Part shown: positions 8,499 to 47,858 of the stretch, piece by piece
How the letters are laid out: every line of letters starts with the position of its first letter
How positions within the stretch are numbered: the first letter of the stretch is position 1
Source of the DNA: Synechococcales cyanobacterium VAR_4_metabat_354
GTDB taxonomy: Bacteria; Cyanobacteriota; Cyanobacteriia; Cyanobacteriales; Chamaesiphonaceae
Length of the DNA stretch: 64,000 bases
Assembly: GCA_031414775.1 (NCBI GenBank)
Contig: JANOQI010000054.1
Location: forward strand, 32,001-96,000
Reading direction: 5' to 3'
Program-made: the position numbers and the translations under genes
Notes under the pieces: model-generated
The model's database searches: none
What the model was told of the DNA's origin: nothing
Seen by the model: only the letters and a program-made list of their open reading frames with translations

Positions 8499-8630
8499 AA
8501 CAAAATTCTTGCTAATTCCTGATTTCAGGAACTAGTATACCCAAATGATGTGGTGAGTTATACTAACGCCACCAAAGCTGGGAAAAGATATAAGATATTG
8601 AAGCCCTCTGATAGAGCATCGAAATACTGT

Positions 8631-9764
8631 ATGAGTAGAGTTGGTATCGGCATCCGCACCGCCAATCAGCGGCAAGAAAGAGAAGCAGGACAAATTCATG
8701 TCTATGATGGAGCTGGTAAAGGCAAGTCCCAAGCCGCTCTAGGCGTAGTACTAAGATCCTTGGGACTGGGAATCGAGAGCGAGACTGACCATCGTATTTT
8801 ATTACTACAATTCCTGAAAGGTCCGGGGCGGGAATATGATGAAGATGCGGCCATTGCTGCTCTGCGCGGTGCTTTCCCGCACTTAATTGACCAAGTGCGA
8901 ACTGGTCGAGCAGAATACTTTGGCCAAGCCGACATTACCGAGTTCGATCGAGAAGAAGCCGCTCGCGCCTGGGACGTGGCCAAAGGAGCGATCGCCTCTG
9001 ATTTATATACCGTGATTGTTCTGGACGAGATGAACCCAGCCTTGGATTTGGGCTTATTGCCCATTGATGAAGTCGTCAGCACCCTAGCCAAGAAACCCCG
9101 CCACTTAGAAGTGATTGTGACTGGTCGGGATACTCCCGCCGCGCTCTTAGAGTTGTCTGATCTACATTCGGAGATGAAGCCCCATCATCATCCCGAAGCC
9201 AAAGAAAAAGGCATTGAAGGAATTGAAATTTATACCGGCGATGGCAAGGGAAAATCTACCAGCGCCTTGGGTAAAGCTTTGCAAGCGATCGGACGAGGCA
9301 TCAGTCAAGATCGCAGCCATCGGGTGCTGATTATGCAATGGCTGAAGGGTGGCAGCGGCTATACCGAAGATGCTGCCATTGCCGCCCTCAAGAAAAGCTA
9401 TCCTCAGCTAGTCGATCACCAACGTTGCGGTGGTGATTCGATCGTCTGGCGCGGTAAGCAGCAAGAGATTGACTTTATCGAAGCAGAACGCGGTTGGGAA
9501 ATTGCTAGCAGTGCCCTGGCATCTGGTCTCTACAAAACCATTATTATGGATGAGCTAAATCCCACCGTGGATTTAGACTTGTTAGCTCAGGAACCAATCG
9601 TTGAGGCATTACTGGCTAAACCAGCGCATACCGAGGTAATTATTACTGGTCGCTGCTACAACACACCAATTTACTTTAACTTGGCCAGTATTCACTCCGA
9701 GATGATCTGTCACAAGCATTACGCTAATAGTGGGGTGAACCTGCGGCGGGGCGTAGATTTTTAG
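8631..9764 (+). CDS. cobO: Cob(I)yrinic acid a,c-diamide adenosyltransferase (CobO/BtuR family), tandem two-domain form
   Basis: Two repeats, each with a GxGKGKS P-loop, QFLKG/QWLKG, LDE/MDE and TGR motifs; ends RRGVDF. Start placed at ATG 8631. Confidence 0.88.
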   Translation: MSRVGIGIRTANQRQEREAGQIHVYDGAGKGKSQAALGVVLRSLGLGIESETDHRILLLQFLKGPGREYDEDAAIAALRGAFPHLIDQVRTGRAEYFGQADITEFDREEAARAWDVAKGAIASDLYTVIVLDEMNPALDLGLLPIDEVVSTLAKKPRHLEVIVTGRDTPAALLELSDLHSEMKPHHHPEAKEKGIEGIEIYTGDGKGKSTSALGKALQAIGRGISQDRSHRVLIMQWLKGGSGYTEDAAIAALKKSYPQLVDHQRCGGDSIVWRGKQQEIDFIEAERGWEIASSALASGLYKTIIMDELNPTVDLDLLAQEPIVEALLAKPAHTEVIITGRCYNTPIYFNLASIHSEMICHKHYANSGVNLRRGVDF

Positions 9765-44441: not shown

Positions 44442-45368
44442 ATGAGTAGTTTTGATTCTTCTGACTCAACATCTATAGCTTCTACCGCAGAATGGAAATC
44501 GAATGTCCGTTCATTACCACCCTGGCTACGCCGATCGATCGGCAGTGCTAGCGAAATTTCTACTGTCCAACAAATTATTAAACAGCGTCAAATTCATACT
44601 ATCTGTGAGGAAGGACGTTGTCCGAATCGGGCGGAGTGCTACAGCCAAAAAACCGCGACTTTTCTGCTGATGGGACCGACCTGCACCCGTAGCTGTGGTT
44701 TTTGCCAAGTGGATAAGGGTCATGCCCCGATGCCTTTAGACCCCCAGGAGCCAGCTAAAGTCGCTGAAGCGGTGCAACTCTTAGGATTACGCTATGTAGT
44801 ACTCACCGCCGTGGCCAGAGATGATTTAGCTGATGGTGGAGCTGGTTGGTTTGTTCAGACTATGCAGGCTATTCGATCGATCGACCCAACTATTCAAATA
44901 GAAGTACTCACCCCGGATTTCTGGAGCGGTAAAGAAGCTGAGACCCTTCAGTATCAACGAGTTGCTACCATTGTTGAAGCGATTCCGGTTTGTTATAACC
45001 ATAATATTGAGACGGTCTCGCGCCTCCAAGATCGGGTGCGGCGGGGGGCTAAATATGACCGTTCTTTAGCTGTGTTGCGTTACGTCAAAGAATGCAATTC
45101 CCAGATTCCCACCAAATCGGGGCTTATGTTAGGTCATGGCGAGACTAGAGCCGAGATTTTAGCAGCTCTAGCAGATCTGCGGGCGGTGGGATGCGATCGA
45201 GTGACTCTCGGCCAATATATGCAGCCTTCTCTCGAACATTTACCGGTGATCAAGTACTGGACTCCAGCTGAATTTGATGAATTAGGTCAAGTTGCCACAT
45301 CTTTGGGCTTTAACCACGTTCGATCGGGCCCATTAGTCCGCAGCTCTTACCATGCGGGTGAGGTTTAA
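44442..45368 (+). CDS. lipA: Lipoyl synthase
   Basis: [20 protein letters not shown] and RSSYHA motifs. Confidence 0.95.
45299..45355 (+). repeat. Direct repeat copy 1 (lipA 3' end)
   Basis: 55/57 nt identical to 46378-46434 by manual comparison. Confidence 0.9.
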
Positions 45369-45370
45369 AT

Positions 45371-45404
45371 AAAAAACGCCCAGGTTGAAAACTTGGGCGT
45401 TTTG
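45371..45404. terminator. Bidirectional terminator between lipA and the 45470 gene
   Basis: AAAAAACGCCCAGGT...ACTTGGGCGTTTT inverted repeat. Confidence 0.8.
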
Positions 45405-45469: not shown

Positions 45470-45946
45470 TTATTTAGAACCAAAGCTACCAAAGTTACCA
45501 AAGCCACCAGCACTAGTGCCACCACCTGGAACTGCGATTGCACCAGAGTTAGAGTTAGCATTAGACGAGCCAAAGCCATTGCTGCCAGCACTTGCTGAAG
45601 CAGTACCACTACCCGAAGTAGGGTTAACAGCTACGCCAGTATTTGCACCACCAGAACTAAAAACGCCAGTAGCACTAACGTTTGCTGCTGTACCAGAAAA
45701 AGTACCATTAGGATTTGCACTACTATTCGAGCCAGAAGTAGCACCAGTGTTAGAACCAGTAGCTGAACCAGTACTACTGCTGTTAGAGAGAGTACCATTA
45801 GAGCCGGGAGTACCAGAAGCACCTAAACTAGTACTTTGACCGCCCACACTAGTAGAATTTTGGCTATGGCTAGGAGTTACAGCGAGGAGTGAAGCTGCTG
45901 CCACGGTAATAGTGACTACAGCTACGGAAAATAATTTATTAGACAT
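45470..45946 (-). CDS. Secreted Gly/Ser/Ala/Thr/Asn-rich protein, paralog 1
   Basis: Sec-type signal (MSNKLF...TPSHS); low-complexity mature part collinear with 47191..47673; own promoter and terminator. Confidence 0.75.
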   Translation of the reverse strand: MSNKLFSVAVVTITVAAASLLAVTPSHSQNSTSVGGQSTSLGASGTPGSNGTLSNSSSTGSATGSNTGATSGSNSSANPNGTFSGTAANVSATGVFSSGGANTGVAVNPTSGSGTASASAGSNGFGSSNANSNSGAIAVPGGGTSAGGFGNFGSFGSK

Positions 45947-46087
45947 CGTTCAAATTCACCCTGTATTACACGAAAAATTACAACCAACTCGATAACTTGA
46001 TAGCTTTCTAGATAAAGCAAAGACATAAATAAATATCTATGTAATTTGCATTTTCGCGAGATAAGCAGTTTAATATCGAGTGACACT

Positions 46088-46115
46088 AACATATCATAGA
46101 AAATAGTGATGTCAA
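46088..46115 (-). promoter_or_regulatory. Sigma70-type promoter of paralog 1
   Basis: Minus strand reads TTGACA-N16-TATGTT with a TG extension; same architecture as 47831-47858. Confidence 0.6.
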
Positions 46116-46377
46116 TAGTTGATCAGTATTAAAAAGCACATATGGAATTAACTTAGTTATTTAATCCTGCTCTGAGTAGCCATTTCCCGAGTTAAGATTA
46201 GTTTAACTCGTGCTATTCTTCCCCTACTATTGAAAAATAGTATCATTAGTTTGACGGAAAACGAATGCACAAATTCACTGACAATATTTAGACCCCCAGG
46301 TATCAAATAAACAGACAGTGGTTTTTAGATTATTTACTAGTACTAATATATTGAAATTTAATGGATTAGATTGCCGA

Positions 46378-46434
46378 ATCTTTGAGCTTTAACCACGTTT
46401 GATCGGGCCCATTAGTCCGCAGCTCTTACCATGC
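46378..46434 (+). repeat. Direct repeat copy 2 (degenerate lipA 3'-end fragment)
   Basis: 55/57 nt identical to 45299-45355; reads [18 protein letters not shown] (CGA changed to TGA). Confidence 0.9.
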
Positions 46435-46466
46435 TGACGAAGCTTAATCCACCTTCATATGCACAC

Positions 46467-46498
46467 AAAAAACCAAGGGATAAATACACCCTTGGTTG
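46467..46498 (-). terminator. Terminator downstream of paralog 2
   Basis: AACCAAGGG...CCCTTGGTT stem preceded by an A run (U tail on the minus strand). Confidence 0.7.
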
Positions 46499-46566
46499 CT
46501 ATCTACTAGCAGTTTAGTAAATATTTTGACGAAATAGCAATTCAAACAGCTATTAATTCGTAACAA

Positions 46567-47046
46567 TTAGAATCCTGAAGTGATATTACCGTATGTCCCG
46601 GCAGCTCCACCACCACTAAGTTGCAGTCCAGGCAAGGATACTGCGTTAGTATTGGTAGCTGCAACACTGGCACCTAGTCCACCATTACCACCGGCACTGG
46701 CACCAGCGTCAGTTTTAATGCCTTCAGGACCAAATGTCACCTTGGAATCTGCTGCTCCGCTGGATTCGAGTCCGTTAGCAGTGGTAGCTTTACCATTGAG
46801 CTGGGTGCTTAGCTCAGTAGGTGTTGCGGTACTGGTGATACCAGTTGCCGCGCTGCCCGGAGCAGTGGTGACGGAGAGATTAGCACCACTAGTGGATTCG
46901 CCGCCAATGCTAGTACCGAACGAAATGGTAGAACCAATCGTAGCAGCGGATTGCAGAGGTGCTGCTTGGCTAGTAGGCACGTTGGCAAGAGTAGTGGCTA
47001 CCAAAGCAGCACCAGCTAAACTACCAAAAAATAATTTGTTAGACAT
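46567..47046 (-). CDS. Secreted Gly/Ser/Ala/Thr-rich protein, paralog 2 (divergent)
   Basis: MSNKLF...PTSQA signal; shares the A.AG.NG.G and (V/L)PG C-terminal pattern with paralogs 1 and 3; ends in Phe. Confidence 0.72.
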   Translation of the reverse strand: MSNKLFFGSLAGAALVATTLANVPTSQAAPLQSAATIGSTISFGTSIGGESTSGANLSVTTAPGSAATGITSTATPTELSTQLNGKATTANGLESSGAADSKVTFGPEGIKTDAGASAGGNGGLGASVAATNTNAVSLPGLQLSGGGAAGTYGNITSGF

Positions 47047-47092
47047 TAGTTTTGATTCCTTACATATCGCGAAAAATTACAAATACTTACGA

Positions 47093-47132
47093 ACAAAGCA
47101 CCTAGGTCTAATATCGATCCTCGGTGCTTTGT
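47093..47132. other. Intergenic stem-loop between paralogs 3 and 2
   Basis: ACAAAGCACC-TAGG...CCTC-GGTGCTTTGT inverted repeat. Confidence 0.7.
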
Positions 47133-47190
47133 CACAGACAGATTCAGTAGAAAATTAATATTTGACTACTAGATCAAAACTGGCTTCGTC

Positions 47191-47673
47191 TTAGAACGAT
47201 TGGCCTAAAGTACCAAATGAACCGCTACCAGCAGCTTGGGTACCAAAACCTGGAACTGAGATAGTACCTGTGCTACTAGCACCAAAGGTAGCACCCAGGC
47301 CATTGTTGCCAGCTTCAGCACCAGAAGAAGCAGTTGCTGCATCGGGAGCAACGCCAACGCCACTTGCAGTACTACCAAAAGCACTAAGACCAGTAGTAGA
47401 AGCTCCACCACCTGTTGCGGAACCAGCAGCGCTAGGATCGGCGTTGCTGCCGGATCCAGAGCTAGCAGCGCTGTTAAAACCAGTAGCGGCGGAGACGCTC
47501 TTACCGAAAGTAGCAGTACCGTTAGGGCCTGGAGTACCAGAAGCACCCAAAGTACCAGTTTCACCAGCAACGCCAGCAGCGCCAGGTAAAGCGTGGCTAG
47601 GAGCTACAGCCAAAAAAGAAGCGGCTGCTACAGCTACACCAGCTACACCAACGGAAAATAATTTCTTAGACAT
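47191..47673 (-). CDS. Secreted Gly/Ser/Ala/Thr-rich protein, paralog 3
   Basis: MSKKLF...APSHA signal; LGASGTPG.NGT shared with paralog 1; ends in Phe. Confidence 0.75.
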   Translation of the reverse strand: MSKKLFSVGVAGVAVAAASFLAVAPSHALPGAAGVAGETGTLGASGTPGPNGTATFGKSVSAATGFNSAASSGSGSNADPSAAGSATGGGASTTGLSAFGSTASGVGVAPDAATASSGAEAGNNGLGATFGASSTGTISVPGFGTQAAGSGSFGTLGQSF

Positions 47674-47830
47674 CGTTCAAATCCACCTTGTATTACACGA
47701 AAAATTACAACACTACTTAATACTCCACAGCCTTCTTGAGCTTTTCCAGAAACCTTGAAAAATAAACTTATTAATTTTCGCAGGACTGTATGCGTTTCAA
47801 GACGTACATAATGTAGTTATAAGTAACACC

Positions 47831-47858
47831 ATCCTAGCGTGGAAAACTGCAATGTCAA
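47831..47858 (-). promoter_or_regulatory. Sigma70-type promoter of paralog 3 (and probably paralog 2)
   Basis: Minus strand reads TTGACA-N16-TAGGAT. Confidence 0.6.

Follow-up and report, generated by a model that had tools for sequence, protein, structure and literature searches.

A lineage-restricted family of small, probably exported cyanobacterial proteins with a predicted two-faced beta fold and a possible silk-like mode of assembly

The stretch of DNA analysed here, hereafter the window, comprises 64,000 nucleotides (nt) from Synechococcales cyanobacterium VAR_4_metabat_354 (genome G000). The system under study is a set of three paralogous genes within it, all on the minus strand, located between a convergent lipoyl synthase gene (assigned by its Radical_SAM and LIAS_N matches) and a gene for a tetratricopeptide-repeat (TPR) protein. 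Their products are referred to as P0001, P0002 and P0003 (paralogs 1, 2 and 3), two other genomes that carry the family as G001 and G007, and other contigs of G000 as C43, C46 and C49. The three genes, with product lengths in amino acids (aa), are the following:

45470..45946, minus strand: paralog 1 (P0001, 158 aa), signal peptide at about 45863-45946; a late duplicate of paralog 3
46567..47046, minus strand: paralog 2 (P0002, 159 aa), signal peptide at about 46963-47046; of a separate old clade, and the most charged of the three
47191..47673, minus strand: paralog 3 (P0003, 160 aa), signal peptide at about 47590-47673; the strongest codon skew

A recheck of the sequence agreed in full with what a sequence-only reading of this DNA had reported on the three co-oriented open reading frames (ORFs): their lengths, their starts (MSNKLF, MSNKLF and MSKKLF for paralogs 1, 2 and 3), the ends of their signals (SHS, SQA and SHA, respectively) and their residue-poor composition, with C, W, R, H and M all missing from the mature regions (residue 29 onwards). 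Charged residues in the mature part amount to one in paralog 1 (the terminal K), five in paralog 3 and nine in paralog 2, and paralog 1 is 47% identical to paralog 3 and 31% identical to paralog 2. Throughout the family, G/S/A/T account for about 65% of the mature regions, whose lengths are mostly 123-143 aa. Ratios of nonsynonymous to synonymous substitution (dN/dS) in the mature region were 0.25 against G001 and 0.44 against G007 for paralog 3, and 0.18 and 0.34, respectively, for paralog 2; because these values are low, we take the three window ORFs to be real genes. Over nine ortholog pairs the mature dN/dS ranged from 0.06 to 0.58 (0.44 or lower in eight of them), the housekeeping value being 0.04 in three comparisons. 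These data indicate that the family genes are real and under purifying selection, yet evolve much faster than housekeeping genes.

Seven members are encoded in G000: the three in the window, three amid the phycobiliprotein genes of C43, and a single one on C49. A hidden Markov model run over the G000 ORFs recovered them at E 3e-38 or better, the next ORF scoring 0.36; the genome also carries phycobilisome linker, CpeS and CpeT genes. The family was found in 3 of the 39 genomes of the taxonomic family (2 of the 11 others of the genus and none of the 27 from its sister genus) and in 3 of 401 genomes at the order level, and in a phylum-wide draw of 401 genomes the own genome was the sole carrier. 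The three carriers are closest relatives as judged by TPR-gene identity (95% and 80%), and the next genome, G003 at 73%, is without the family. G001 gave nine matches and G007 three; the nine correspond to eight genes, since a contig end cuts paralog 1. A profile search of 1.84 billion cluster representatives returned 26 matches, 20 of them full-length (P0001 included), one partial and five with the signal peptide alone, and wherever the sources name family proteins the label is hypothetical. None of 36 members rose above the cut-off in Pfam or NCBIfam, the best being weak Collagen and signal-peptide matches below it, and neither a PDB sequence search nor a BFVD fold search gave a match; the earlier statement that no family could be recognised is thus borne out. 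Scans of metagenome and viral DNA yielded no confirmed relative, and at 17 loci in the nine other genomes of the genus the TPR and lipoyl synthase genes had no family gene closer than about 1.5 kb. Word searches of the literature, which could miss an unnamed family, found no description of it. In a tree that kept all 36 rows (long branches flagged for P0020, P0017, P0015, P0016 and P0018), the paralog 2, paralog 3/1, C49 and C43 types formed four supported clades, the first three of which span genomes, with paralogs 1 and 3 grouped in one clade (support 100/99). Altogether, the family is real, without match in the libraries searched and confined to a small lineage, and its predicted beta architecture is probably new.

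Several further observations concern the family beyond the window. P0020 (L031:1489-1980, on G001:C243), the eighth paralog of G001, is highly charged, with 19 charged residues; in G000 a gap of only about 130 nt separates the genes that flank the corresponding site, so that copies seem to be gained and lost quickly. P0021, P0023, P0024, P0026 and P0027 (64-127 aa) carry a C43-type signal on unrelated, mostly Pro/Cys-rich mature parts; no protein of this kind was found in G000, and the three tested were without a Pfam match. This arrangement suggests that the signal, or a promoter-signal cassette, may have been reused on unrelated proteins. An IS605-family OrfB/TnpB gene (L001:7477-8649, on C43) lies between two C43 paralogs, inside the phycobiliprotein region. 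The top feature matches in the ESM Atlas were hypothetical clusters of 122-124 aa, commonest in Pseudomonadota, at 0.79 for P0003 and 0.89 for P0006 (171 shared features); all matches stayed below 0.9. They are a lead only.

Export of the family proteins is likely. Simple rules identified a basic start and a hydrophobic core in all 33 aligned members and small residues at -3/-1 in 30 of them, in line with the secretion-type signal proposed earlier, whereas a lipobox Cys or twin Arg occurred in 0 of 33. The mature regions are free of strongly hydrophobic 19-residue windows (mean hydropathy 1.48 at most), and in G000 the signal profile matches the seven family genes alone. These features point to Sec export with cleavage by signal peptidase I (SPase I) after residue 28. 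G000 has a single secretin, encoded elsewhere in the genome, which is the only candidate found for an outer-membrane route. PF13557, used as a stand-in for FapF, was silent in every control genome, and that test is void.

The skew towards GGT, GCT and ACT codons noted earlier was confirmed: T-ending Gly/Ala/Thr codons make up 0.70, 0.52 and 0.73 of the total in paralogs 1, 2 and 3, respectively, compared with a genome mean of 0.37. Among 2318 ORFs ranked on this measure paralog 3 is 3rd, paralog 1 is 7th and paralog 2 is 130th, and the genes that rank near paralogs 3 and 1 are presumably those for phycobiliproteins, psbA, EF-Tu and pilins. From this codon usage, high expression of the window paralogs appears likely. 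A self-consistent codon adaptation index was dropped, as it did not converge on recognisable highly expressed genes and placed the paralogs at ranks from 48 to 2323 of 3042.

Conservation along the mature region alternates strictly. In an alignment of 27 rows (after dropping 6 of the 33 that were more than 70% identical to another), the autocorrelation of column entropy was -0.55 at lag 1 and +0.47 at lag 2, matched by none of 5000 column shuffles; after realignment the values were -0.48 and +0.44, the extremes in 25 shuffle-and-realign controls being -0.23 and +0.19. One face (face A) has an entropy of 1.65, with 81% G/A/S/T and 0.5% charged residues, and the other (face B) has an entropy of 2.77, with 19% polar or charged residues. 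The best AlphaFold2 model of P0003 (predicted local distance difference test, pLDDT, 82; predicted template-modelling score, pTM, 0.70) consists of eight strands (31-44, 54-64, 69-78, 82-93, 96-109, 112-123, 126-140 and 144-159), and in all eight one face is conserved, small and uncharged and the opposite face variable. AlphaFold2 models of P0001 (pLDDT 57-68) have strands at nearly the same places, the third being broken in two. The alternation together with the eight predicted strands supports the earlier claim of a fixed, beta-rich fold rather than disordered filler, and a folded, two-faced beta structure is in our estimate well supported and very probable. The turn motifs of the sequence-only reading do sit at AlphaFold strand ends, but their proposed spacing of about 15 residues is not significant when the periodicity of P/N/D columns is judged over all lags (the best lag was reached in 665 of 5000 shuffles). 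Where that reading had left the choice between a beta-meander and a beta-solenoid, the long predicted strands and short turns favour the meander; a solenoid appears less favoured, and none was among the matches listed for the models.

Submission of AlphaFold monomer models to Foldseek, the course suggested earlier, gave no confident known fold and no good match to a solved one (TM at most 0.27). Residues 67-124/125 of the P0003 model, which correspond to strands 3-6, fit gasdermin pore hairpins at 0.8-1.2 Å over 54-58 residues, and the only matches spanning residues 28-160 were 10 secretin entries, 9 of them at 2.2-2.5 Å over 70-76 residues. Outer strands of secretins flank the inner strands in sequence. 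In the secretin protomer a four-stranded outer sheet is stacked on an inner sheet (PMC6532946; papers are cited here and below for what their excerpts state). The weak model matches suggest a flat two-layer sandwich of 2+4+2 strands resembling a secretin wall. The composition of face B is divided along the same lines: its hydrophobic share is 0.28 in strands 1, 2, 7 and 8 vs 0.16 in strands 3-6 (reached in 33 of 20000 permutations) and its charged share 0.024 vs 0.079 (1 of 20000), this division being the most extreme of 70 possible splits on both measures and holding in 20 of 27 rows. Under inferred hairpin registers, the nearly invariant glycines G37, G100, G127 and G157 share one row of the buried face. 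A prediction of a four-copy complex of the mature domain (score 0.01, mark 0.42) was not used as evidence.

The reading that we prefer, and hold with slightly less than even confidence, is that of an exported, amphipathic, silk-like two-layer sandwich that polymerises through its open edges into a ribbon or coat; a polymer of some kind, be it a ribbon, a ring or a stacked sheet, is probable. The subunits, likely abundant and likely exported by Sec, would lose their signal after residue 28. Strands 3-6 would make up a flat layer and strands 1, 2, 7 and 8 a second one, with the conserved Gly/Ala/Ser/Thr face packed dry between them; the glycine row would let the layers approach very closely, and V33/V35/L96 and V106/V108/F153 would close the ends of the core. 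The more hydrophobic outside of strands 1, 2, 7 and 8 might stick to another ribbon, to the envelope or to a substrate, and that of strands 3-6, carrying the few charges, would face water. Since no capping element is evident, the free edge strands could pair with the next subunit, at about 19 Å per subunit. Uncapped beta-solenoids grow into fibres in curli (PMC10192328), and engineered antifreeze beta-solenoids without caps likewise polymerise to fibres (PMC7034853). The paralogs may co-assemble or serve different conditions, paralog 3 possibly as the major and paralog 2 as the minor product of one transcript. By analogy, the ribbons or film might attach the cell or stiffen its sheath. The earlier idea of a major subunit followed by a nucleator survives in part: a major/minor pair is plausible, because paralogs 3 and 2 are syntenic in three genomes, have a conserved hairpin between them, belong to separate old clades and differ in codon bias; nothing points to a nucleator role.

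A number of observations weigh against a secreted, polymerising sandwich. The two faces were assigned from the same alignment that revealed the alternation, only one of five P0003 models was confident (pLDDT of the rest 56, 54, 40 and 35), and VIA-align gave Z of at most 5.3 for the P0003 model, a commonplace level on the tool's own scale. The P0001 model had no Foldseek match and none of 48161 chains at Z 2 or more in VIA-align, which makes it probable that the two models have different three-dimensional structures. The two-layer topology was read from match ranges and not from coordinates, and porin walls align with the P0003 model over about 90 residues at 4.4-5 Å, which would fit a single wide sheet. 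The surface test of the 2+4+2 division was not blind, the per-strand values being known beforehand, and in the three C43 paralogs the hydrophobic face is almost nil (0-7%) and the split is not seen. C-ending Phe/Asn/Tyr/Ile codons are not clearly raised (0.32-0.47 in the paralogs, mean 0.34, psbA 0.84-0.87), and high expression is therefore uncertain. As for partners, no conserved gene accompanies the three family loci, and a CsgG channel (PF03783) had no match in G000, which is 99.96% complete (the control matched 4 of 14 genomes).

The same model matches can be turned to other arrangements. In one, the two-faced subunits would assemble into closed structures of set size (rings, hoops or tubes), a giant barrel with a double wall like that of a secretin, and serve in or on the envelope as a pore, collar or sheath hoop. 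The closest low-deviation matches of the P0003 model are indeed oligomeric giant-barrel walls (secretins, gasdermin and other pores), one outer side is more hydrophobic and 21 of 33 members end in an aromatic residue, but these matches, with Z of 5.3 or less, mostly reflect long flat strands, and the hydrophobic side has just 28% V/I/L/F/M/Y/W and nearly vanishes in three paralogs. Periplasmic domains and a lipid anchor are missing, and a weak search through 8000 scored candidates revealed no longer or fused form; we regard rings as unlikely. Somewhat more doubtful is another version of the polymer model, differing in topology: a flat, single-layer sheet of eight strands would zip its conserved small face onto that of a second subunit to give dimers or stacked, silk-like crystallites. 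Short turns between all strands are compatible with one meander, face A stays one-sided under the inferred hairpin registers and the porin-wall alignment agrees with it; against this, the secretin matches span the first to the last strand at about 2.4 Å, the surface is split 2+4+2 rather than uniform, and the single residue between strands 6 and 7 in the P0001 model is too short for a hairpin. A minimal monomeric outer-membrane barrel of the OmpA/OmpX type, raised in the sequence-only reading, shares with OmpA, OmpX and Ail the eight strands, a Sec-type signal, the size (about 130 aa) and the frequent terminal Phe or Tyr, but the hydrophobic outer face and aromatic girdle of such barrels are both missing: V/I/L/F/M/Y/W reach 14.5% and 22% on the two faces, neither of them lipid-like, with Trp at 0.1% and Tyr at 1.1%. 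The terminal aromatic is lacking in 12 of 33 members, paralog 1 and the three C43 paralogs among them, and the predicted P0003 model fits poorly, both on Ail (6.1 Å, Z 3.7, 81 residues aligned) and on OmpX (TM 0.16). The face composition thus weakens the barrel, which we consider very improbable.

The most credible of the alternatives, although still unlikely, dispenses with assembly: a self-closed monomer (a flattened barrel), soluble in the periplasm or outside the cell, would bind a flat ligand such as a polysaccharide, a mineral or ice. The alignment demands just one conserved buried face, and flat Thr/Ala/Ser-rich antifreeze proteins (AFPs) resemble the family in composition. The Rhagium inquisitor AFP (PDB 4DT5) is a very thin sandwich of small residues. 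In its engineered form the sandwich is 5.8 Å thick, and it forms fibrils once its ends are engineered (PMC7034853). However, a binding face should be conserved, yet the exposed face is the variable one. The Rhagium protein is a solenoid with blocked ends and an outward TxTxTxT array (PMC7034853, PMC13080227), and in beta-solenoid AFPs the ice-binding site is recognised by such TxT arrays (PMC13080227); the family has a variable exposed face and no conserved outward Thr array. TxT counts per member range from 0 to 7, out of register in the 33 members, P0001 has none, and no exposed position has Thr in more than 16 of 33; membership of the TxT ice-binding proteins was rejected on this basis, and the earlier suggestion of ice binding is weakened. 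Finally, disordered low-complexity filler of a sheath or matrix would agree with the share of G/S/A/T and with the low confidence of four of five P0003 models, but not with the strong period-2 conservation, the preserved turn and core positions and the narrow range of mature lengths, and we give it hardly any credence.

Regarding systems already described, the family has in common with curli CsgA/CsgB a small Sec-type protein rich in Gly/Ser/Asn with several homologues per genome, residues that are conserved where they point inwards and variable where they point outwards, a pair of sheets zipped to each other and, only as proposed for the family, open-ended cross-beta growth (PMC10192328). Curli strands, on the contrary, form a solenoid of repeats of about 23 residues (PMC10192328), as opposed to the strands of 10-16 residues in the antiparallel meander predicted here. 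The curlin repeat PF07012 had no match in G000 (the control matched E. coli) or in 36 members, and the QX10Q motif occurs in 0 of 33; with these and CsgG missing from G000, membership was rejected and the likeness to curli drawn earlier fails. The Caulobacter holdfast anchor HfaA is also a small, exported, amyloid-like protein on the surface of a freshwater bacterium that lives attached, but depends on the CsgG-like HfaB and on HfaD (PMC6707917). EbfG1-4 of Synechococcus elongatus are, like the family, a set of small secreted cyanobacterial paralogs, proposed to form a biofilm matrix amyloid; they have double-glycine leaders and a C39 peptidase transporter (PMC9981879), in contrast to the Sec/SPase I-type signal and different organisation found here. 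A double-glycine leader pattern occurs in 0 of 33 members, whose leaders are hydrophobic and of AxA type, which led us to reject this membership too; no C39 peptidase transporter was recognised among the neighbours at three loci, a genome-wide search not having been made. Secretin walls (PF00263) would share with the family two stacked sheets and sideways growth by edge pairing (PMC6532946), but the matches of the P0003 model have 5-14% identity at Z below 5 and likely reflect convergence on long flat strands. PF00263 matched 0 of 36 members, and these proteins of about 160 aa have no N domains or S domain; without that match and the periplasmic N domains, secretin membership was rejected.

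We tentatively propose, with less confidence than the sandwich polymer itself, a bacterial silk: a new class of extracellular polymer made of pre-formed, antiparallel two-layer cross-beta bricks with a Gly/Ala/Ser core. Such a silk would have one sticky and one wet side, co-assembling paralogs and no export machinery of the curli or Fap type, and would have evolved in one small cyanobacterial lineage as attachment or sheath material. The bacterial functional amyloids known so far belong to a few families, and little is known of the proteins in the sheaths and biofilm matrices of cyanobacteria. If true, the proposal would add a new architecture, a thin open-edged sandwich without sequence or fold match, and could also serve protein materials as a compact scaffold that is free of cysteine. 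The biological reach is small, since the family is found only in a few uncultured close relatives.

The DNA around the genes bears on their history and expression, and contains the following features:

46371..46447, plus strand: relic of the lipoyl synthase 3' end (last 77 nt, 88% identical), a DNA repeat that, with 45292-45368, brackets paralog 1
47831..47858, minus strand: conserved sigma70-like promoter (TTGACA-16-TAGGAT) upstream of paralog 3; TATTGACAT is unchanged in all 5 of the upstream regions compared (three genomes)
46088..46115, minus strand: equivalent promoter-like site upstream of paralog 1, a repeat of the paralog 3 upstream DNA
47674..47711, minus strand: nearly invariant leader adjoining the start codon of paralog 3, with a copy at 45947-45984 and a partial copy at 47058-47082
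47093..47132, minus strand: stem-loop without U-tract separating paralogs 3 and 2, a prediction shared by all three genomes (z -2.5 to -3.0)
46467..46497, minus strand: terminator-like hairpin and U-tract 3' of paralog 2, from hairpin prediction
45373..45403, no strand assigned: hairpin flanked on both sides by A/T tracts, between the convergent lipoyl synthase gene and paralog 1

Paralog 1 is a DNA copy of paralog 3, and the copy extends into the upstream sequence. Decay of the lipoyl synthase relic has gone further in G001, and G007, which has only paralogs 2 and 3 at this place, lacks it. This fits a tandem duplication, or an insertion at the end of the lipoyl synthase gene, as the putative origin of paralog 1; alternatively, G007 may have lost paralog 1. 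In G007 (L017:7100-7230, on G007:C12) the lipoyl synthase gene and paralog 2 are separated by about 120 additional bases, which contain a GC-rich inverted repeat and have no counterpart in G000 and G001. The leader is nearly invariant across the same five upstream regions. Paralogs 3 and 2 would be carried on one transcript, with paralog 3 in excess and the stem-loop between them as a candidate mRNA stabiliser or stoichiometry element, and the hairpin at 45373..45403 is likely a bidirectional terminator.

Other candidate surface proteins were seen elsewhere in G000. Five co-oriented ORFs of 104-145 aa (L002:1720-3710; G000:C49:13719-15709), 4 kb from the C49 paralog, have signal-like starts and Asn/Thr/Gly/Gln-rich internal repeats (motif like GNGNSTVNV); three were tested and had no Pfam match, and the cluster is a candidate for a second, more curli-like fibre system. 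On C46 (L035:4708-5391 and 8573-9253), two Ser/Ala/Thr-rich proteins of 227 and 226 aa, 68% identical, flank a 790-aa ORF; they have signal-like starts and a strong codon skew, the one tested was without a Pfam match, and the pair occurs in 2 of 121 genomes. A relationship of this pair to the family was not detectable (hhalign probability 0.15%). A 154-aa ORF without Pfam match (G000:C46:145219-145683) resembles, by eye, a small outer-membrane barrel, with its signal, alternating aromatics and terminal Phe. In G003 (L042, on G003:C2; compare L002:7366-8332), the TPR gene stands directly opposite the neighbour that the C49-type paralog faces in G000, G001 and G007; the window array and the C49 gene may derive from a single array broken up by a rearrangement. 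The product of this neighbouring gene is 302 aa long in G001 and G007 but 120 aa in G000.

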